Assembly: GCA_965222715.1 (NCBI GenBank)
Contig: OZ244961.1
Coordinates: 140,609-204,608 of the forward strand
From: Minisyncoccota bacterium
GTDB lineage: Bacteria > Patescibacteriota > Minisyncoccia > Phycocordibacterales > JABMNX01
Length of the DNA stretch: 64,000 bases
Direction: 5' to 3'
In this document: positions 4,365 to 63,453 of the stretch, piece by piece
How the letters are laid out: the number at the start of each line of letters is the position of its first letter
Numbering within the stretch: the stretch's first letter is position 1
Position numbers and translations under genes: made by a program
Notes under the pieces: generated by a model
What the model was told of the DNA's origin: nothing
The model's input: only the letters and a program-made list of their open reading frames with translations
Databases searched by the model: none

Positions 4365-4385
4365 GTTTTACACTCACTACACAAA

Positions 4386-4413
4386 AAACGCTAAGAGTAC
4401 TCTTGGCGTTTTT
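4386..4413 (+). terminator. intrinsic terminator, copy 1 of conserved palindromic repeat AAACGCTAAGAGTACTCTTGGCGTTT
   Basis: perfect-ish 11-bp stem plus T-run directly after groEL stop. Confidence 0.6.
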
Positions 4414-4450
4414 TGTGTGATATAATCTTAAAAAATAAGTAATACATACT

Positions 4451-8178: not shown

Positions 8179-8212
8179 GCGACCTTGGTGTACCCAAGGT
8201 CGTTTTCTTTTT
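8179..8212 (+). terminator. rho-independent terminator (GCGACCTTGG tgtac CCAAGGTCG + T-run)
   Basis: 10-bp stem and T-run after GGDEF stop. Confidence 0.6.
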
Positions 8213-10902: not shown

Positions 10903-13248
10903 ATGCTTGAAGCTAACAAAAAGGCGAAAGCCGATGCTAAGATCAACGAGATCATGAATACAAAGGTCGAAAAAAATATCCCTACAGTAACTGCTGCTGA
11001 TTACAAAAAATTTGTACCAAAGATACAAAAACGAGATGGTTCTATTGTTTCTTTTGACTTTGAAAAGATTGTTACTGCAATTTACAAAGCAATGGAAGCA
11101 AGCGGAGAAGGTTCTCGTGAAGAAGCAGCAATGGTCGCGCACCGTGTTGTTGCAGATATGGTACGTATTGCACGGAAATACAAGAATTTCATGCCGACTG
11201 TTGAAGGATGTCAGGACGATGTTGAGCGAGAATTGATTCTTGCTGACTATGTTGCGACTGCAAAGTCATACATTCTCTATCGTGCAGAGCATGCGCGTCG
11301 CCGAGCACAGGAAGTTGCTATCCCTAAAGAAGTTCGAGAGACAATTGCGGAGAGTAGTAAATATTTTAAAACTCCATATCAAGAATTTATCTTCTATCAA
11401 TTTTATTCACGGTGGCGAGATGAGCTTGGCCGACGTGAGACGTGGGTTGAAGCAATTGATCGTTACATGGACTTTATGTATGAAAAACTTGGTGACAAAC
11501 TCACCAAGAAAGAATACAAAGATGTGCGTGAAGCAATTCTTAATCAAGACGTTTGTCCTTCTATGCGCCTCTTGTGGTCAGCAGGGAAAGCGTGTCGCGA
11601 TACGAACGTAACTGCGTATAACTGTGCGTACATTGCACCAACATCATGGCGTGATCTTTCTGAGATCATGTATGTGTCTATGTGTGGCGCGGGATGTGGT
11701 TTCTCAGTTGAGCCTGAAAATGTTGAGAAGTTCCCACAAATTCAAAAACAAAAGAAAGGTGAAGTGAAGAAAATTGTTGTAGAAGACAGTAAGGTTGGGT
11801 GGTGTAACGCGTTTGTTGAAGCGTGTGAGGCATGGGCTGGCGGAGGAGAAGCTGAGATTGATTATTCAAAAATTCGTCCTGCTGGTGCACGACTTCTTAC
11901 CATGGGTGGCCGCGCATCAGGACCCGCACCTCTTGAAGAGTTGATGAACTTTACTCGTCGTAAAATTCTTGCAAAGCAAGGTCGACGACTCTCAACCATT
12001 GATGTACACGATATTGCGTGTCAGATTGGCCTTATTGTTGTTGCTGGTGGGGTACGCAGAAGTGCGCTTATTTCACTCTCTTCACTTGATGACACTGATA
12101 TGCGTGACGCAAAGAAGGGCGCATTCTGGCAGACAGAAGGGCAACGCTCAATGGCAAACAACTCCGCAGTGTATGAAGTAAAACCAACTGCTGATGAATT
12201 CTTTGATGAATGGACTGCGCTCGTAAAAGCAAAAAGTGGTGAGCGAGGCATCTTTAACCGTGGTGGCTTTGAAACACAGTTACCAAAACGCCGATGGAAC
12301 AAACTAAAAGACAAAACACAACCAGGAGTCAATCCGTGTGGAGAAATTTACCTGCAGTCAAAGCAGTTCTGTAACCTTACCTCAATCGTTGTTCGTCCAA
12401 ATGACGACATGAAGAGTTTGAAACGAAAGGTTACTCTTGCGACACTTCTGGGAACATACCAAGCAACACTTACTGACTTTGAGTATCTTTCAAAAGATTG
12501 GAAGAAAAATTGTGAAGACGAACAACTACTTGGTGTATCAATTACTGGGTACTATGACAATGAATTAGTGCGTGATGATAATAACCTTGATGCACTTCGA
12601 GAGGAAAGCATTAAGACAAATAAGAAGTATGCAAAGCGATTCAAGAAAAAAGAATCAACGGCAATTACGTGTGTGAAGCCTCATGGAAACTCAGGACAAC
12701 TACTTGGTGTAGGTTCAGGTATGCACCCATGGTTCGCACGCCACTACATTCGCCGGGTACGTATTAGTGTAAATGATCCACTTCTTAAACTTGCTGAAGA
12801 GCAAGGTGTGCCAATTAAGCCTGAAGTAGGATACTCTACATCAAACGCTTCAACGATGGTACTCGAATTTCCAGTAAAGGCGCCTAAGGGTGCGGTATTA
12901 AACAAGGATGTCTCAGCGCTCGACCTTCTTCATGAATGGAAGCGACTCAAGAAACATTTCACTGAACACAATCCATCAGTAACAATTTACGTTGGTGATA
13001 ATGAATGGGTGGGTGTTGCAAACTTCTTGTATGAGAACTGGGATATTGTTGGCGGACTTTCATTCCTTCCACGAACAGATCATATCTACCAACTTGCTCC
13101 ATACGAAGAGATAGGTAAAGAAGAGTATGAGCGTAGAAAGAAAGATCTTGGTGAGATTGATTTCTCAAAACTAATCAGCTTCGAACGAGAAGATAACACG
13201 GTTGGTGCAAAGGAGCTTGCTTGTTTCGCGGGAACCTGTGAGATATAA
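10903..13248 (+). CDS. ribonucleotide reductase large subunit with N-terminal ATP-cone, probably class II (adenosylcobalamin-dependent)
   Basis: 781 aa; ATP-cone (KIQKRDGSIVSFDFEKIV), active-site NPCGEI, C-terminal Cys pair; no nrdB/nrdF neighbour. Confidence 0.8.
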   Translation: MLEANKKAKADAKINEIMNTKVEKNIPTVTAADYKKFVPKIQKRDGSIVSFDFEKIVTAIYKAMEASGEGSREEAAMVAHRVVADMVRIARKYKNFMPTVEGCQDDVERELILADYVATAKSYILYRAEHARRRAQEVAIPKEVRETIAESSKYFKTPYQEFIFYQFYSRWRDELGRRETWVEAIDRYMDFMYEKLGDKLTKKEYKDVREAILNQDVCPSMRLLWSAGKACRDTNVTAYNCAYIAPTSWRDLSEIMYVSMCGAGCGFSVEPENVEKFPQIQKQKKGEVKKIVVEDSKVGWCNAFVEACEAWAGGGEAEIDYSKIRPAGARLLTMGGRASGPAPLEELMNFTRRKILAKQGRRLSTIDVHDIACQIGLIVVAGGVRRSALISLSSLDDTDMRDAKKGAFWQTEGQRSMANNSAVYEVKPTADEFFDEWTALVKAKSGERGIFNRGGFETQLPKRRWNKLKDKTQPGVNPCGEIYLQSKQFCNLTSIVVRPNDDMKSLKRKVTLATLLGTYQATLTDFEYLSKDWKKNCEDEQLLGVSITGYYDNELVRDDNNLDALREESIKTNKKYAKRFKKKESTAITCVKPHGNSGQLLGVGSGMHPWFARHYIRRVRISVNDPLLKLAEEQGVPIKPEVGYSTSNASTMVLEFPVKAPKGAVLNKDVSALDLLHEWKRLKKHFTEHNPSVTIYVGDNEWVGVANFLYENWDIVGGLSFLPRTDHIYQLAPYEEIGKEEYERRKKDLGEIDFSKLISFEREDNTVGAKELACFAGTCEI

Positions 13249-21282: not shown

Positions 21283-21421
21283 AGTGTTTTAATTTTGGTC
21301 TCAGGAATCGAAAGACGGAACGAGCGGTAGCGAGTGAGTCCGGGTAGGAGCCACTTCGTACTATTCCAGTATACTGGCATAGTACGTTAGTGAGCTGACA
21401 CCGATTCCTGGCGGGGGCACA
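21283..21421 (+). repeat. tRNA 3'-flank structured element, copy A (ends in 19-nt repeat of the tRNA-Arg 3' end)
   Basis: core TCGAAAGACGGAACGAGCGGTAGCGAGTGAGTCCGGGTAGGAGCCACTT-hairpin-TAGTGAGCTGACACCG then CGATTCCTGGCGGGGGCAC, identical to 21237-21255; homologous to copies at 48970-49098, 57131-57228 and 58836-58952. Confidence 0.7.
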
Positions 21422-21586
21422 AAACTGCAAGAAAACCATACTTACGTCTCATTTCTTGCGTTTTGTGAAGTGGGGCGATATCAAGTGAAACGAGACCATC
21501 AGCCAGTGTTGTACTCTCCATACTATGAATTACATTCCTTGTTTTATTTAGCACTTTAAAAATGTATATGGTTTAATTTATTTATC

Positions 21587-23228: not shown

Positions 23229-23338
23229 CAAAGTGCGAATGATGAGTTTAGTAACCTGACGCCAAGATTGACCGCAAATCTGCCCAAAAAACACCACAAG
23301 TACTTGCGGTGTTTTTTAGTGACTCTAAACAGTTTCCT

Positions 23339-28719: not shown

Positions 28720-28774
28720 AGTGGAATCCAGACTAGCACTTTTTGCAGAAACTCCCAAAATGTTGTATTCTAAT

Positions 28775-28800
28775 AAACGCCAAGGGTACCCTTGGCGTTT
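28775..28800. repeat. conserved palindromic terminator repeat copy 2 (AAACGCCAAGGGTACCCTTGGCGTTT)
   Basis: same AAACGCCAAG...CTTGGCGTTT arms as copies at 4386, 41432, 48668, 56993, 60593. Confidence 0.6.
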
Positions 28801-28851
28801 AGTTTGGCTTTGATAAGCCACGCCTAAATACTTAAATAAAAAGTTATTTTA

Positions 28852-40475: not shown

Positions 40476-40612
40476 AAAAATGTGTGAGAGGTGCTGTGCT
40501 ACTGAACAATGTCTCTAGAGCCTTTCTTCGTATCAGTAGGGTTAGCAGCACTTCTCGCTAACAAAAAACCCGCATCTACGGGGTAGCAGTACTATACTTT
40601 GCTGGTGCATAA

Positions 40613-40657
40613 AAGTCAAAAGTAAAACCGCCCCAAGCACTTCTGCGCTTGGGGCGG
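40613..40657 (-). terminator. GC-rich intrinsic terminator for the GC-rich secreted-protein gene
   Basis: minus-strand CCGCCCCAAGC gcagaagt GCTTGGGGCGG followed by TTTTACTTTT. Confidence 0.6.
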
Positions 40658-40710
40658 GGGTTGAACGGGAACGACGATTTGATCGTCAGAGAGACTTCGG
40701 CACCGGCCGA

Positions 40711-41229
40711 TCAGGATGCGATCGTCAGACCGCTCCAGCCGCCGGACAGCAGGGTCGTCTTCAGCAACAGGCCGGACGTACCGGAAGTGTCGATGAAGTC
40801 GTTGTTGGTGTCGAACGCCGCGACCTCCAGCGCGGAGGGCGGCATCTTGGCCAGGCCGGCGGTCGTGCCGACGTTCAGCTGATCGAAGTCCATGAAGGCG
40901 CTCACCTGGTCGAGATCGTGGATCACGACGTTCGGCGGGTTGCCGATGTCGGCGCCGTCGGAATACAGAAGCCACTGGGTCCGGTCGAAGTCGGACAGAT
41001 CGCCGATGTCGGCCAGCATGGTCTGCTGGCGCGCGGCCGGCGTCGTCGAGTCGTTGGTCGTGACCGAGCAGTCGAACGCCGCGACCTCCACCGCGGTGCC
41101 GTTCAGGCCGATGTCGACGTCGAGCGCATTGCAGTCGTTACTGGCGAGCGCCGCGTTCGGCGGTGCCATGGCGACGAAACCCAAGATGGCGGCTGCCATC
41201 AGCGGGGTCATGAAGAAACGTTTCCTCAT
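40711..41229 (-). CDS. secreted hypothetical protein with internal EVAAFD repeat, GC-rich (likely horizontally acquired)
   Basis: 172 aa from ATG 41229 (GGGAG RBS); signal peptide MRKRFFMTPLMAAAILGFVAMAPPNAALA; about 63% GC versus about 39% background. Confidence 0.55.
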   Translation of the reverse strand: MRKRFFMTPLMAAAILGFVAMAPPNAALASNDCNALDVDIGLNGTAVEVAAFDCSVTTNDSTTPAARQQTMLADIGDLSDFDRTQWLLYSDGADIGNPPNVVIHDLDQVSAFMDFDQLNVGTTAGLAKMPPSALEVAAFDTNNDFIDTSGTSGLLLKTTLLSGGWSGLTIAS

Positions 41230-41377
41230 TCGCTTTTCTCCCATTCGAGTGTGAAGAACAGTGCCTCACTGTTGAGACCTGCCCAGTGTATCATATAAAG
41301 AAATATTGTCAAGTCCTCACATATGTGGTGTGGAAAACAACTTTATTACTTAAGAATGTGTGTAAAATGAAAGAAAT

Positions 41378-41403
41378 AAACGCCACGAATACCCTTGGTG
41401 TTT
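41378..41403. repeat. degenerate copy of the conserved palindromic repeat (AAACGCCACGAATACCCTTGGTGTTT)
   Basis: arms diverged from AAACGCCAAG/CTTGGCGTTT. Confidence 0.45.
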
Positions 41404-41431
41404 CGCTCAAAATGGCTCTATAGAGCTCTGT

Positions 41432-41456
41432 AAACGCCAAGGGTATTCTTGGCGTT
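41432..41456. repeat. conserved palindromic repeat copy (AAACGCCAAGGGTATTCTTGGCGTTT)
   Basis: intact arms; lies in a divergent intergenic region. Confidence 0.6.
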
Positions 41457-41491
41457 TAACGCGGCAGCCTTCTCGTGTATACTAATCGGAT

Positions 41492-47225: not shown

Positions 47226-47597
47226 ATGTTCACTAAATATCTTTACCTGTTTGTTGCAGTTACCACACTCTTTTTCTTAAGTGATATTCCGCATGCTTTT
47301 GCGCAGTCGGGTGGTTGTGACTCTGGCACTGGGTTACGTAACCCTCTTAATAATATTTGTAGCTTTGAAGATTTTGTTGAACTTCTGCTTGAGGCAGTAG
47401 TGCGCATCGGACTTCCAATTGCAGTGCTCTTTATTGTGTACTCTGGATTTCTCTTTGCAACAGCTCAGGGTAATGAAGAAAAAATCAAAAAAGCAAAACA
47501 AGCGTTTTTCTACACAGTTATTGGTATTACCATCTTCCTTGGGGCATGGGCGCTTGCGGTCATTATTGGAAACACCATACAGCTCCTTGCTGGATAG
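47226..47597 (+). CDS. TrbC/VirB2-like pilin-type small membrane protein (paralog 1)
   Basis: 123 aa: signal peptide, Cys pair, TM1-charged loop (QGNEEKIKKAK)-TM2 topology. Confidence 0.5.
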   Translation: MFTKYLYLFVAVTTLFFLSDIPHAFAQSGGCDSGTGLRNPLNNICSFEDFVELLLEAVVRIGLPIAVLFIVYSGFLFATAQGNEEKIKKAKQAFFYTVIGITIFLGAWALAVIIGNTIQLLAG

Positions 47598-47601
47598 TAG
47601 T

Positions 47602-47904
47602 ATGAAAAGAACATTTCTTCTTAGCACAACATTGTTTCTCACCCCATTTCTTGCACTTGCTGCCCCAAGTAATTTTCCTGAACTTGTTGGTCTCTTTATT
47701 TTCTATATTAATCTTATTATCCCACTAATAATTGCACTTGCAGTTCTCGGTTTCTTTTGGGGTGTTGCGCAATATATACTTGCATCGAAAGATACCTCAA
47801 AGATACAAGACGCCCGAAAAATGATCCTCTGGAGCCTGATTGCAATCTTTGTTATGACATCAGTGTGGGGAATACTACGGGTGCTTGCTAATACATTTCT
47901 ATAG
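47602..47904 (+). CDS. TrbC/VirB2-like pilin-type small membrane protein (paralog 2)
   Basis: 100 aa from ATG 47602: signal peptide, FFWGVAQYILASKD...WSLIAIFVMTSVWG two-helix core. Confidence 0.5.
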   Translation: MKRTFLLSTTLFLTPFLALAAPSNFPELVGLFIFYINLIIPLIIALAVLGFFWGVAQYILASKDTSKIQDARKMILWSLIAIFVMTSVWGILRVLANTFL

Positions 47905-48020
47905 ACTACTAGTGTATATGTAATCCACAGCAGTTCATTGCCTAGCATCTTATAACCCAGCTATGATACTATAAAGTGTACAGGTTATTTATTAGCACTT
48001 AATAATACGTAATTATTACA

Positions 48021-48371
48021 ATGAAAAAGTTTTTAATACTTCCAGGATTCCTTGCAGGTCTTCTTGTTGCTCCACTTGCAGTACAGGCACAAGGTGATCT
48101 CCAGGGTGTCATCACTGTCTTTTCAGACCTTATCAACCTCGCTATTCCTCTAGTGCTTGCACTTGCAGTACTCTACTTCTTCTGGGGACTCGCAATGTTT
48201 GTGCTTGCTCAAGGAAATGAAGACAAGCGTAAGGAAGGACGAGATATCATGATTTACGGTATCATTGCTCTCTTTGTGATGGTGTCCGTCTGGGGTCTTA
48301 TCGGAATCTTACAAGATACATTTGGTGTAGATAACACTAACCCAATTGTCCCTGAAGAGATTCGAAGGTAG
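48021..48371 (+). CDS. TrbC/VirB2-like pilin-type small membrane protein (paralog 3)
   Basis: 116 aa: signal peptide ending AQA, LYFFWGLAMFVLAQGNEDKRKEGRD...VMVSVWG core. Confidence 0.5.
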   Translation: MKKFLILPGFLAGLLVAPLAVQAQGDLQGVITVFSDLINLAIPLVLALAVLYFFWGLAMFVLAQGNEDKRKEGRDIMIYGIIALFVMVSVWGLIGILQDTFGVDNTNPIVPEEIRR

Positions 48372-48405
48372 GGTGTCTCTCAAGGTTCTCTAACGTATTT
48401 TCTTT

Positions 48406-48648
48406 ATGTCAGTTGATGACTTAGTGAGTCGCATCTCACAGTACATTATCGATCCAATCATTCTGCTCTTGTTCGCGCTTGGGTTGTTGTACTTCCTCTG
48501 GGGTGTTGCCATATTTATATGGCAGTCTGATAGTGAAGATGCTCGGAAGAAGGGTGTACAACATATGCTTTGGGGAATCATTGGAATGTTTATTATGATT
48601 GCCGCACTCGGTATCATAAATCTCATTGAAGGAACCTTTGGTTTGTAA
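48406..48648 (+). CDS. TrbC/VirB2-like pilin-type small membrane protein (paralog 4, no signal peptide)
   Basis: 80 aa: LYFLWGVAIFIWQSDSEDARKKG...IMIAALG core. Confidence 0.45.
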   Translation: MSVDDLVSRISQYIIDPIILLLFALGLLYFLWGVAIFIWQSDSEDARKKGVQHMLWGIIGMFIMIAALGIINLIEGTFGL

Positions 48649-48667
48649 GTATAGACTTAGCTAAAAT

Positions 48668-48698
48668 AAAAAACGCCAAAGCTGCTCTTGGCGTTTTT
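48668..48698 (+). terminator. conserved palindromic terminator repeat copy (AAAACGCCAAAGCTGCTCTTGGCGTTTT)
   Basis: stem plus T-run immediately after the last pilin-like gene. Confidence 0.6.
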
Positions 48699-48759
48699 TA
48701 TTTTAATTGAAAAAAAGAAGTAAAGCGTGTATTATTTTTCTTTGTATTGATTACTCAGA

Positions 48760-49454: not shown

Positions 49455-49508
49455 AACCCGCGCATCGCGGTTTTGCAGACCGCTGTGTTACCACTTCACC
49501 ACCGTGCC
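49455..49508 (-). pseudogene. truncated duplicate of tRNA-Cys (5' two-thirds only, no T-arm 3' strand or acceptor 3')
   Basis: 54 nt identical to 49259-49312, then diverges into long hairpins (49383-49425, GATCCTgtaAGGATC, CCGCCCGagaCGGGCGG). Confidence 0.7.
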
Positions 49509-56964: not shown

Positions 56965-56992
56965 CTTTTAAGTAAGTAGAAGTCTCACAAAA

Positions 56993-57018
56993 AAACACCA
57001 AGAGTACTCTTGGTGTTT
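56993..57018 (+). terminator. conserved palindromic terminator repeat copy (AAACACCAAGAGTACTCTTGGTGTTT; compensatory G>A/C>T in arms)
   Basis: directly after clpB stop, followed by T-run. Confidence 0.6.
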
Positions 57019-57130
57019 TTTATAGCTTATTGGTGGGGGATTTGGCGCCAGTTCTAAACTCACTCTGTTCGTTAAGAACTCGCTGCCCCGTCGTTCAAAT
57101 CACTCTCGGTAGGAAATTTATGATTCCCTA

Positions 57131-57228: not shown

Positions 57229-57285
57229 GCTCCGCTTCACAAAACGCAGAAAACCAGACGCAGGTCTGGTTTTCTTGCAGTTTTG

Positions 57286-57394: not shown

Positions 57395-57467
57395 GGACGT
57401 TACGGACACGTCCGTCAGATTCTTAACATTATTGGTCTGAAGCAACTAACCACTCTGCCACCGACGC
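57395..57467 (-). pseudogene. decayed partial duplicate of tRNA-Tyr (acceptor 5', D-arm, anticodon arm with 15-nt loop, no T-arm)
   Basis: TGCGTCGGTGGCAGAGTGG identical to the tRNA-Tyr 5' end, then diverged TTCAGAC-15nt-TCTGACGGAC. Confidence 0.6.
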
Positions 57468-57577
57468 AATGTGGCCTATTTTAGCCTGTTTGTCCTGTTT
57501 TCTCAACCCTTCTGTAACAAGATTTATACAACTATACAACTTGTATCATTGTTTTCATCAAGCTACTATTAGGTGTA

Positions 57578-58411
57578 ATGAAATACGTACTTGCACTTGC
57601 TGTTCTATTTGTACTCATTGGGGGTACTTTTTTGCTATTGCCGGATGCGACTTTTGCACAATTCGATAACCCATCCCAAGGTACTGCAGTCCCTGGGGGC
57701 AATACTTCTTCTGGTTTAACGGAGAGAGTGGGGGGTGGAGGACTAGTGCCATGTGGAGGTCCAGGGCAAGACGCGTGTACCACATGTCACGCACTTCAAC
57801 TTGCACAAAATGTTGTTGAGTTCATTGTGCAAGTCTCATTTGTGATTGCTGCACTTCTGTTTGCCTACGCAGGCTTTCTCTTCTTTACTTCCTCTGCAGT
57901 TGACTCCATTTCAACAGCAAAAAATATTTTTACCAATACCGTTGTTGGTATCATCATCATTCTTACTGCTTGGCTCTTAGTAAATGTACTTCTTCATACA
58001 CTTACCGGTAAAGGAGTTAACCCTTTCACTGAATTGTTGTGTGACATAACTGAGCAACCCATACGAAACAATGCAACGAACAATTCAATAAACACTACCG
58101 GGGGCACAGCTAGTGGTGTGAGTACGGAAGGTGTTTCAGAAAATGATTCAGAGATAGATCCACTTCAAGATGCGCGAGATCGTGCAGCAGAAATACAGGC
58201 TGAACGTGATCGACAACTAGAAGAAGAGCGTCAGGCAGCAGTTGAAGCGGGGGGAGACCCTGACGAAGTGCCGTTGGTCAATAAATGGTTTTTTAGAACA
58301 CAGACAGGTCCACAAGGAGAAGAGGTGGGGCCTTTTGATTCGCAACCAGAATGTGTAAGTCGTGCAATTGCTTCAGGGGTAAATCCATTTTGTTACGCAA
58401 AATCAATCTAG
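57578..58411 (+). CDS. TrbC/VirB2-like pilin-type membrane protein (paralog 5) with 130-aa C-terminal Asn/Thr- and acidic-rich extension
   Basis: 277 aa: signal peptide, Cys-rich segment (CGGPGQDACTTCH), two-helix core collinear with 47226-47597. Confidence 0.45.
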   Translation: MKYVLALAVLFVLIGGTFLLLPDATFAQFDNPSQGTAVPGGNTSSGLTERVGGGGLVPCGGPGQDACTTCHALQLAQNVVEFIVQVSFVIAALLFAYAGFLFFTSSAVDSISTAKNIFTNTVVGIIIILTAWLLVNVLLHTLTGKGVNPFTELLCDITEQPIRNNATNNSINTTGGTASGVSTEGVSENDSEIDPLQDARDRAAEIQAERDRQLEEERQAAVEAGGDPDEVPLVNKWFFRTQTGPQGEEVGPFDSQPECVSRAIASGVNPFCYAKSI

Positions 58412-58835: not shown

Positions 58836-58952
58836 GACTCGAAAGACGGAGCCGAAGGCGAGTCCGGGCAGGAGCCACTTCCTCAAAATATTTTATGTTA
58901 ACAAAAGTATTTTGAGGTTAGTGAGCTGACGCCGAGTCCTCGTGGGCCCGCA
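58836..58952 (+). repeat. tRNA 3'-flank structured element, copy C (21-nt repeat of the tRNA-Trp 3' end)
   Basis: GGACTCGAAAGACGGAGCCGAAGGCGAGTCCGGGCAGGAGCCACTT-hairpin(CCTCAAAATA...TATTTTGAGG)-TTAGTGAGCTGACGCCGAGTCCTCGTGGGCCCGCAA. Confidence 0.7.
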
Positions 58953-59039
58953 AAACATTTTTCATACACCTTAGAATCCACCCCTCTTACTATTTCGTCA
59001 TATGAAGAAATAGTAAGATAGTGTGTTACGTAGAATCTG

Positions 59040-60563: not shown

Positions 60564-60592
60564 CAATAGTTTGCTAGAAAAAAAATAAAAAT

Positions 60593-60618
60593 AAACGCCA
60601 AGAGTACTCTTGGCGTTT
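60593..60618 (+). terminator. conserved palindromic terminator repeat copy (AAACGCCAAGAGTACTCTTGGCGTTT)
   Basis: after peroxiredoxin stop, followed by ATTTTTG. Confidence 0.6.
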
Positions 60619-60627
60619 ATTTTTGAG

Positions 60628-60672
60628 TATAAAAAGAAAACGGCGACTCTCTATTGCTAGAAGGTCGCCGTT
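60628..60672 (-). terminator. intrinsic terminator for pyrFE (AACGGCGAC ... GTCGCCGTT + T-run on the minus strand)
   Basis: 9-bp GC stem, 16-nt loop, T-run. Confidence 0.5.
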
Positions 60673-60693
60673 TGTGTGTCAGAAGTATGTATT

Positions 60694-62397: not shown

Positions 62398-63453
62398 ATG
62401 ATACAATACACGGTAATTATGGAAGCAGAACACTTTTACAACGATTCGATTTTTTGGGTTGAGCTTGAAAAGATTCACCCGAACCCATTTCAGCCACGAA
62501 AAGAGTTTAATGAAGCTAAGCTAAGTGAGCTTGCTGATTCAATTCGTCAGTACGGTGTACTTCAACCACTCGTTGTTACTCGTCGTGAAAAAGAAAAAGA
62601 AGATGGAGGTCTTGCTGTTGAGTATGAACTCATTGCTGGTGAGCGACGGCTACGCGCCTCACGGTTAGCTGGACTTTCACAGATTCCTGTTATTATCCGC
62701 ACCAGCGACGAGACAGACAAGATGAAGCTCGAACTTGCGATCATTGAGAACTTACAACGTGAAGACCTTAATCCAATCGATCGAGCAAAGGCATTCAAAC
62801 GTCTCGTTGATGAATTTGGGTTAAAGCATGGAGAAGTAGGGAAGAAAGTAGGAAAGAGCCGCGAATACGTTTCAAATACACTGCGACTCTTACTCATGCC
62901 AGAAGAAATACAACAAGCACTTTCTGACGGAAGCATCTCTGAAGGACATGCCCGACCAATATTGATGCTTACGGGGAAAGACGATGAGCAGAAAACACTC
63001 TTTAAGGAAATAATGTACAAGAAGCTTACCGTACGGGAAGCGGAAGAGATTGCACGTCGCATTGCAACAGATCGAGTTCGCAAGAAAGAAAATGCACTTA
63101 GCCCTGAATTAATCGCACTTGAAGAAGAGTTAACGCAGAAACTTGGTACACGAGTACAGATTGAAGAGCGTGAAGGTGGTGGGCGAGTGCACATTGATTA
63201 TTTTTCAGTTGATGATTTGCGCAATATTCTAGAGAAGATAGAGGGTGAGCAGAACAAAGGCTTTTTAGAACGTCTAACCTCTTTTACGCAAGGAACGCAG
63301 CAAACTACTCAAACAGAAGTACGTGAGAAAACAGATATTACTCATGATGGTGCTGAAGAACAAAAAACCCCAATTGATGATAGATCTGAAAAAGAGAAAG
63401 AAAAAGAAGAAAACGACGAAGATCTCTACTCAGTTAAAAACTTCTCTATTTAG
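62398..63453 (+). CDS. parB: chromosome partitioning protein ParB/Spo0J with acidic C-terminal extension
   Basis: 351 aa, ParB box GERRLRA, HTH region, C-terminal Glu/Lys-rich tail. Confidence 0.8.
   Translation: MIQYTVIMEAEHFYNDSIFWVELEKIHPNPFQPRKEFNEAKLSELADSIRQYGVLQPLVVTRREKEKEDGGLAVEYELIAGERRLRASRLAGLSQIPVIIRTSDETDKMKLELAIIENLQREDLNPIDRAKAFKRLVDEFGLKHGEVGKKVGKSREYVSNTLRLLLMPEEIQQALSDGSISEGHARPILMLTGKDDEQKTLFKEIMYKKLTVREAEEIARRIATDRVRKKENALSPELIALEEELTQKLGTRVQIEEREGGGRVHIDYFSVDDLRNILEKIEGEQNKGFLERLTSFTQGTQQTTQTEVREKTDITHDGAEEQKTPIDDRSEKEKEKEENDEDLYSVKNFSI

Follow-up and report, generated by a model that had tools for sequence, protein, structure and literature searches.

The 64-kb stretch of DNA analysed here (the window) has a G+C content of 41-46% and carries scattered tRNA genes together with one RNase P RNA. 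A Pfam scan taking in nearly all of its ORFs of at least 73 aa mapped the housekeeping genes groES-groEL-LemA-NUDIX-NUDIX-HtpX, RNR, MurJ, LepA, Hsp20, FtsA/Z, S1 and GyrA and, further, a T4SS-type pilin cluster, IF2, ClpB, MiaA, peroxiredoxin, PyrF and an orphan ParB. GroEL and ClpB were each found once in the protein collection, both on one 617,472-bp contig, and their nearest relatives, at 81-85% identity, are labelled Kaiserbacteria, Paceibacteria or Parcubacteria. The source organism is a Kaiserbacteria-like Parcubacterium with a small CPR genome. The pilin cluster consists of four small paralogous genes (PF18895/TrbC), with a fifth pilin-domain protein encoded after clpB (Table 1); they do not belong to the type IV (PilA) pilins, although the wording of the first-pass annotation could be read that way, and their synteny is kept in all relatives examined.

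Dispersed through the window are short palindromes that share one sequence. Seven of them, 26 bp each, had already been recognized in the first-pass annotation, and all seven are present, with 0-4 mismatches to AAACGCCAAGAGTACTCTTGGCGTTT. Their core is AAACGCCAAG-N6-CTTGGCGTTT, which all seven copies carry at no more than 4/26 mismatches, and a fuzzy search of the whole window allowing up to 6 mismatches returned no matches beyond these sites. At three mismatches or fewer the consensus 26-mer finds five sites in the window as against none in 100 dinucleotide-preserving shuffles. The copies also have in common the inner stem and loop (AGTACT or GGTACC) and AAT/ATT flanks; in the copy that follows groEL, for example, bases 4386-4411 read AAACGCTAAGAGTACTCTTGGCGTTT, with more A and T runs on either flank. 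The proposal that three copies share an exact centre needs correction, as only two of them (at 56998 and 60598) contain the 16-mer CCAAGAGTACTCTTGG, whereas the groEL copy has CTAAGAGTACTCTTGG with CTAAG in its place, the single mismatch between its arms, where the groEL strand has a U-G wobble pair. A repeat finder and a covariance model disclosed an eighth, diverged copy (23283-23320 in the covariance match). The model, R1, was built from the family copies and run over the window with all filters off: the seven copies score 42.7-59.6 bits and the eighth 34.8 bits, while other hairpins of the window reach at most 20.6 bits, a gap which sets the family apart as a discrete one instead of the extreme of a continuous range of terminators. 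On average the window has a copy every 8 kb or so. Stems of the CCAAGG/CTTGG type occur in three other hairpins (for example CGACCTTGG tgtac CCAAGGTCG; Table 1) that score below the family in the covariance search, and these may be chance resemblances or very old relatives of it.

Table 1. Palindrome copies and other features of the window. Scores are those of covariance model R1, with the strand in brackets; folds are of RNA unless marked.
Feature	Positions	Strand	Start of 26-bp palindrome	Sequence	R1 (bits)	Fold (kcal/mol)	Setting
Copy 1	4383..4414	+	4386	AAAAAACGCTAAGAGTACTCTTGGCGTTTTTT	53.8 (+), 49.0 (-)	-26, z -7.9	terminator-type; 21 nt past groEL stop, 39 nt before LemA
Eighth copy	23286..23317	-		AAAAAACACCACAAGTACTTGCGGTGTTTTTT	34.8 (-), 32.1 (+)		terminator-type; between convergent tRNA-Phe (+) and hsp20 (-), 24 nt past hsp20 stop
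Copy 2	28772..28803	.	28775	AATAAACGCCAAGGGTACCCTTGGCGTTTAGT	54.5 and 53.5	-19, both strands	midway between divergent tRNA-Ser (-) and tRNA-Glu (+)
Copy 3	41378..41403	-	41378		42.7 (-), 15.1 (+)	-6.6 to -9 (weak)	decaying; nearest to reverse complement of copy 4 (2/26 mismatches)
Copy 4	41432..41457	+	41432	TAAACGCCAAGGGTATTCTTGGCGTTTA	49.4 (+)		adjoins -35 (TTAACG) of Lactamase_B_3 promoter
Inverted doublet, copies 3 and 4	41378..41457	.				-27.5 (ssDNA), z -6.3	28-bp spacer containing 12-bp palindrome GCTCTATAGAGC
Copy 5	48662..48705	+	48671	TAAAATAAAAAACGCCAA agctgctc TTGGCGTTTTTTATTTTA	50.2 (+), 37.8 (-)	-20.7, z -7.2	terminator-type; 22 nt past stop of last T4SS-type pilin gene, upstream of tRNA-Lys promoter
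Copy 6	56990..57021	+	56993	AAAAAACACCAAGAGTACTCTTGGTGTTTTTT			terminator-type; 28 nt past clpB stop, convergent with tRNA-Tyr
Copy 7	60587..60624	+	60593	AAAAATAAACGCCAAGAG ta CTCTTGGCGTTTATTTTT	59.6 (both)	-22.3, z -8.1	terminator-type; exact consensus, 18-bp arms; 29 nt past peroxiredoxin stop
Terminator of tRNA-Tyr	57248..57275						separate from copy 6
Terminator of pyrF	60640..60675						different from copy 7; pyrF convergent with peroxiredoxin
CCAAGG/CTTGG hairpins	8180..8202, 11488..11508, 40628..40657						third is also terminator of island ORF
Pilin gene cluster	47226..48648						four paralogues
Fifth pilin-domain gene	57578..58411						after clpB
Orphan parB	62398..63453						no adjacent parA
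16-bp palindromes	30436, 49529			TATTGCACGTGCAATA, TATTTCTCGAGAAATA			perfect; 4 mismatches from parS consensus
S1 leader	40476..40600	-		GTAGGGTTAGC ... GCTAACAAAA.ACCCG....ACGGGGT			blocks conserved in relatives
High-G+C island	40661..41245						64% G+C
Island ORF	40711..41244	-					177 aa
Partial tRNA-Cys copy	49455..49508						54 nt, exact; 196 bp from gene
Partial tRNA-Tyr copy	57435..57468						91% match; 98 bp away
tRNA 3' end-like fragments	21386..21425, 58917..58956						83% similar to each other

The non-coding part of the window is small, 11.2% against the 88.8% covered by genes, yet all eight copies fall within it. Five of them follow a stop codon at a distance of 21-29 nt, and in these the palindrome is preceded by A runs and followed by T runs. 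The hairpins are stable: the fold z-score is below -4 in each of copies 1 to 7, the seven that were folded, the arms extend to as much as 18 bp with flanks, and as RNA the terminator-type copies 1, 5, 6 and 7 fold at -17 to -26 kcal/mol (z -5.9 to -8.1). Copies 1, 5, 6 and 7 and the hsp20 copy each place a stable hairpin and a U tract past a gene end, the geometry of a bidirectional intrinsic terminator, and from this geometry they are predicted to terminate transcription. At two of these sites the convergent gene, tRNA-Tyr opposite copy 6 and pyrF opposite copy 7, has a terminator of its own, so that copies 6 and 7 belong there to the plus-strand gene. Copy 1 is directly upstream of an extended -10 element (TGATATAAT). 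The association with gene 3' ends thus holds for five of the eight copies and fails for the other three, which are situated between divergent genes; the original description of a terminator reused at six or seven loci was overstated, as only these five, four of them among the seven first listed, fit in sequence. Four of the five follow stress or chaperone genes (groEL, hsp20, clpB and the peroxiredoxin gene prx), a bias not predicted by random insertion, which may only reflect a need of highly expressed genes for strong terminators.

The three copies away from gene ends are of a different character. Copy 2 has no gene end to terminate and only a marginal U tract (TTTAGTTT). Copies 3 and 4 share the intergenic region that separates a minus-strand ORF from the Lactamase_B_3 gene on the plus strand, and the promoter of this gene has a -10 element that is conserved in relatives. 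Neither copy 4, in either direction, nor copy 3, on the plus strand, has a U tract (GTTTAACGCGG, GTTTCGCTC); the bases past copy 4 are AACGCGG on one strand and ACAGAGC on the other, and in these orientations no gene end lies upstream of either copy. Together these two copies make up the only inverted doublet of the window, a single REPIN-like hairpin of about 80 nt, the other six copies being singlets. In REPINs, inverted doublets at a fixed spacing are the mobile unit. Rfam returned no family matches at the copies, its sole hits being spurious miRNA-precursor matches over the doublet (41376-41459).

The first-pass annotation had also considered that the palindrome might be bound by a protein, and we weighed the possibility that it is the operator of a dimeric DNA-binding protein, perhaps of a stress regulon, with its resemblance to a terminator secondary. 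A perfect dyad of 26-28 bp with conserved outer half-sites is what such a site would present, copy 4 adjoins the -35 element of the Lactamase_B_3 promoter, copy 1 overlaps the promoter region of the LemA-NUDIX-HtpX operon, copy 2 lies between two divergent tRNA promoters, and groEL, hsp20, clpB and prx are all stress genes. However, five of the eight sites are downstream, not upstream, of genes, no regulator gene is linked to the copies, and the pattern of substitution is that of a folded strand. In an alignment of nine sequences, the seven window copies and two from a Saccharibacteria MAG, pairing is kept in 93.7% of cells, and substitutions on both sides are seen at three pairs (T-A/A-T, G-C/A-U and A-U/G-C). 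The arms change together, as in the compensatory ACACC/GGTGT variant, which had been noted from the outset and is indeed borne by copy 6 after clpB, and in the change of GAG/CTC to GGG/CCC. In two terminator-type copies the arm mismatch is a wobble on the strand of the upstream gene, for the eighth copy a G-U pair on the hsp20 strand and for copy 1 the U-G pair described above. Members in other genomes are 25 or 27 bp long as against 26 bp here, so that loop length and half-site spacing differ between genomes, while half-site centres some 16-17 bp apart would place the two half-sites on opposite faces of the helix. Covariation, strand-specific wobbles and variable spacing favour a folded strand over a dimeric protein site, and we regard the operator reading as unlikely. 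The CIRCE element, the HrcA operator found upstream of groES or dnaK (TTAGCACTC-N9-GAGTGCTAA), has no match in the window at up to 3 mismatches, and the palindrome stands after groEL, not before groES; we reject this reading.

A more specific protein-binding role, that of a non-canonical parS or other ParB-family site, comes to mind from the orphan parB: eight palindromes lie within 64 kb of it, and no canonical parS is found in the window at up to 3 mismatches. Two perfect 16-bp palindromes of the window are 4 mismatches from the parS consensus (Table 1), and the relatives' loci checked contain no good parS matches. The ParB of the relative L112 is 71% identical to that of the window and has an identical recognition (helix-turn-helix) stretch, GKKVGKSREYVSNTLRLL, yet the loci of L112 and L113 are without the family; moreover the palindrome varies at its centre, the very part that in parS is conserved most. 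A parS role is hardly credible on these grounds.

Inverted pairs of DNA uptake sequences form terminators in Neisseria, and CPR bacteria carry competence genes, DprA among them in L112. The palindrome resembles the DUS/USS pairs of Neisseria and Pasteurellaceae in being a conserved inverted repeat that stands after many genes and doubles as a terminator, and could on this basis be a pair of signals recognized in natural transformation. Its density of 1 per 8 kb is, however, far below that of DUS/USS, and single half-sites are not enriched here as they are in those systems: the 10-mer half-site has 18 matches at no more than one mismatch, of which 14 are arms of the seven palindromes and the other 4 compare with 4.6 expected by chance, and none falls in coding sequence. 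There is hence no sign of an uptake signal, and this explanation is very improbable.

Comparison with syntenic relatives was made over loci around groEL, clpB and ftsZ, partly overlapping and about 176 kb in all, in which gene order is almost fully kept and GroEL and ClpB are 81-83% and 82-85% identical to those of the window. It takes in the orthologous sites that follow groEL, the last pilin gene, clpB and prx, and stops short of that of copy 2, where in L113 and L114 the synteny breaks or the contig ends. At the four sites named the relatives each have a hairpin, and all of these are unrelated in sequence to the family. The pyrF terminator, on the other hand, has a stem (AACGGCGAC...GTCGCCG) common to the window and L111, which indicates that terminators can persist vertically at this distance. 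Given that vertical persistence is possible and that the orthologous hairpins are nevertheless unrelated, the family appears to have replaced or overwritten older terminators in this lineage. The fetched loci are nearly devoid of the family, with no member in those of L112 and L113. The sole true member in the relatives' ~176 kb is at 15881-15917 of L111 (AAATAAACGCCAAGG taa CCTTGGCGTTTATTT, 44 bits), between convergent TspO and MiaA genes and orthologous to none of the window copies. One member in ~176 kb against eight in 64 kb gives the window a density at least 10 times that of its nearest relatives. The clpB terminator of L112 (12711-12739, AAAAACACCAACC ccg GGTTGGTGTTTTT) resembles copy 6 and might represent its ancestor. 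No filled and empty site pair was found in a close relative, the nearest relatives in the databases searched having ~83-85% protein identity. Nor is there a consistent target-site duplication among the copies; many have TA at both ends, but not the terminator-type copies. The relative JACPLB01 (L104) has two copies of another palindrome, of 36 bp (ATCCAAGGACTTCCAATATACTGGAAGTCCTTGGAT), within 21 kb (12308-12343 and 21462-21497), with similar flanks at both sites (ctcgctc ... ccatgcccgctca), which suggests that such lineage-specific families of palindromes characterize the clade.

Beyond these relatives, a scan of genome contigs with the frame AAACRCCAAG-N6-CTTGGYGTTT returned at least 103 loci, mostly single generic terminators in unrelated phyla, and the stem base AAAC(G/A)CC...GG(C/T)GTTT is generic for terminators. 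The GTAC-centred form has no match in metagenome or viral scans, and the looser TAAACGCCAAG-N2-9-CTTGGCGTTTA finds six single-copy metagenome loci and no viral loci. As the frame occurs once each in more than 100 unrelated genomes, part of the motif similarity is convergent, and it could be proposed that all of it is: highly expressed genes needing a strong bidirectional terminator would have arrived independently at one sequence, with neither common descent nor copying. The frequency of AAAAACACC...GGTGTTTTT stems in relatives is compatible with this, as is the resemblance of the L112 clpB terminator to copy 6. But the copies agree in loop, inner stem and AAT/ATT flanks although termination needs none of these, three stand where no terminator is needed, and the other strong terminators of the window are unique in sequence. 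The gap in bit score (35-60 against at most 21) likewise argues for one family, and convergence as the whole explanation seems to us quite unlikely. Among the matches listed, the unrelated Saccharibacteria MAG CAZVBS01, the proteins of which are ~36-38% identical to those of the window, appears twice, both times with the AAT/ATT flanks. One of its copies (L078) has a GGTGCC centre; the other (L101, 2077-2114) stands between fusA and tuf and, flanks included, matches copy 7 without a difference over 32 bp. This second copy sits inside the str operon without a U tract, which suggests that it does not serve there as a full terminator but, for example, as a processing or stabilizing hairpin or an attenuator.

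We consider the best explanation, with a probability of about 0.6, to be a REP-like dispersed palindrome family that has been amplified or homogenized in this lineage and co-opted as terminators. The family would consist of short (about 26-32 bp) dispersed extragenic palindromes with the core (AAT)AAACGCCAAG-N6-CTTGGCGTTT(ATT), and its abundance in one Parcubacteria lineage would have come about by copying to new intergenic sites or by homogenization of existing hairpins. When transcribed, the palindrome would form a stable hairpin of 11-19 bp, which past a gene and between A and T tracts has the layout of a factor-independent terminator and as a 3' end could also protect the mRNA; because the palindrome is symmetric, it could work in both directions. 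The terminator role would apply after groEL, hsp20, the pilin cluster, clpB and peroxiredoxin, while copies 2, 3 and 4 are best read as non-terminating or decaying members. If eight copies per 64 kb extrapolates to 617 kb, the genome would contain some 75 copies; REP/REPIN families number tens to hundreds of copies per genome.

REP and REPIN sequences are repetitive extragenic palindromes of Proteobacteria mobilized by RAYT transposases (PMC3116915, PMC3337134). In Pseudomonas, REP doublets with A/T runs on their flanks serve as co-opted terminators, and REP singlets in the form of long palindromes (20-28 bp) are also described (PMC3337134). The palindromes described here share with them a short palindromic unit (20-40 bp), a strictly extragenic and lineage-specific distribution and many near-identical dispersed copies, as well as the use of some copies with A/T runs as putative terminators, the presence of long palindromic singlets and, in copies 3 and 4, an inverted doublet. 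They differ in that singlets dominate, with one doublet among eight copies, in that the host is an ultra-small CPR genome, and in that no RAYT is seen in the 64 of 617 kb covered. Among window ORFs of at least 73 aa scanned against Pfam no transposase, RAYT, integrase or Y1/HUH protein was found, the window amounting to ~10% of the genome in which a cognate RAYT-type transposase might be encoded; a RAYT, an IS200-like HUH/Y1 transposase, would be expected to have the repeats on both sides of its gene. The early suggestion of a REP/BIME-like repeat is borne out in respect of a single sequence family that is strictly extragenic, keeps its pairing and is enriched in this lineage, and its cognate RAYT was not found in the window. 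By analogy, the family appears to work like a REP family co-opted for termination and is a candidate for REP/REPIN proper. Our literature search found no report of REP-like repeats in Patescibacteria.

Two other classes of element invite comparison. Ordinary bidirectional terminators between convergent genes have the same A tract, GC-rich symmetric stem and T tract 20-30 nt past stop codons, and they evolve by compensatory change; their sequences, however, are unique, whereas here eight share one sequence and three are away from gene ends. MITEs and repeats of the Correia, RUP and BOX types are also non-coding, scattered through intergenic regions and able to carry promoter or terminator activity. 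These, however, run to 50-200 bp or more, have terminal inverted repeats and show duplicated target sites, unlike the present unit, which is at most 32 bp, wholly palindromic and without a consistent target duplication.

A bolder form of the REP-like reading, which we hold to be rather improbable, would make the family the non-autonomous partner of an active mobilization system, RAYT-like or other, within a CPR genome of 617 kb, and would have it pass horizontally from one CPR lineage to another (the Kaiserbacteria-like genome, its relative and the Saccharibacteria MAG share the 32-bp element); with it we place the idea of a conserved 3' element co-ordinating groEL, hsp20, clpB and prx.

Few known genomes are as small and streamlined as those of CPR/Patescibacteria, and the general view is that they contain very little repetitive DNA. 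A REP-like family as dense as this one (about 1 per 8 kb), supplying a large share of the strong terminators, would show that streamlined genomes tolerate or exploit self-similar non-coding elements, and also that terminators can be replaced wholesale within a lineage. Should a mobilizing enzyme exist, REPIN/RAYT biology would be extended far outside the Proteobacteria, and the mobilization reading, if true, would make this the first system of the REPIN type known from ultra-reduced bacteria that depend on a host. The motif could be used as a strong bidirectional terminator in genetic tools for CPR and as a strain-typing marker. The repeat is real and its mechanism ordinary, while its host is unusual.

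Several other features of the window deserve mention. One is an island of 64% G+C in a genome of 42% G+C, with a minus-strand ORF encoding a protein that has a signal-peptide-like N terminus and no Pfam match; the ORF has its own promoter and a GC-rich terminator (Table 1). In the corresponding spacer between S1 and Lactamase_B_3, L113 has no such gene and L114 has a different short high-G+C ORF, and the island has the look of a variable site where genes are acquired horizontally, or else of a chimeric assembly. The leader of S1 has no Rfam match and contains blocks conserved in L113 and L114 that may be an autoregulatory 5' UTR structure. Partial duplicates of tRNA genes are present near tRNA-Cys and tRNA-Tyr, and two mutually similar fragments resemble tRNA 3' ends; these may have been left by integration events at tRNA genes or may be duplicated tRNAs in decay.
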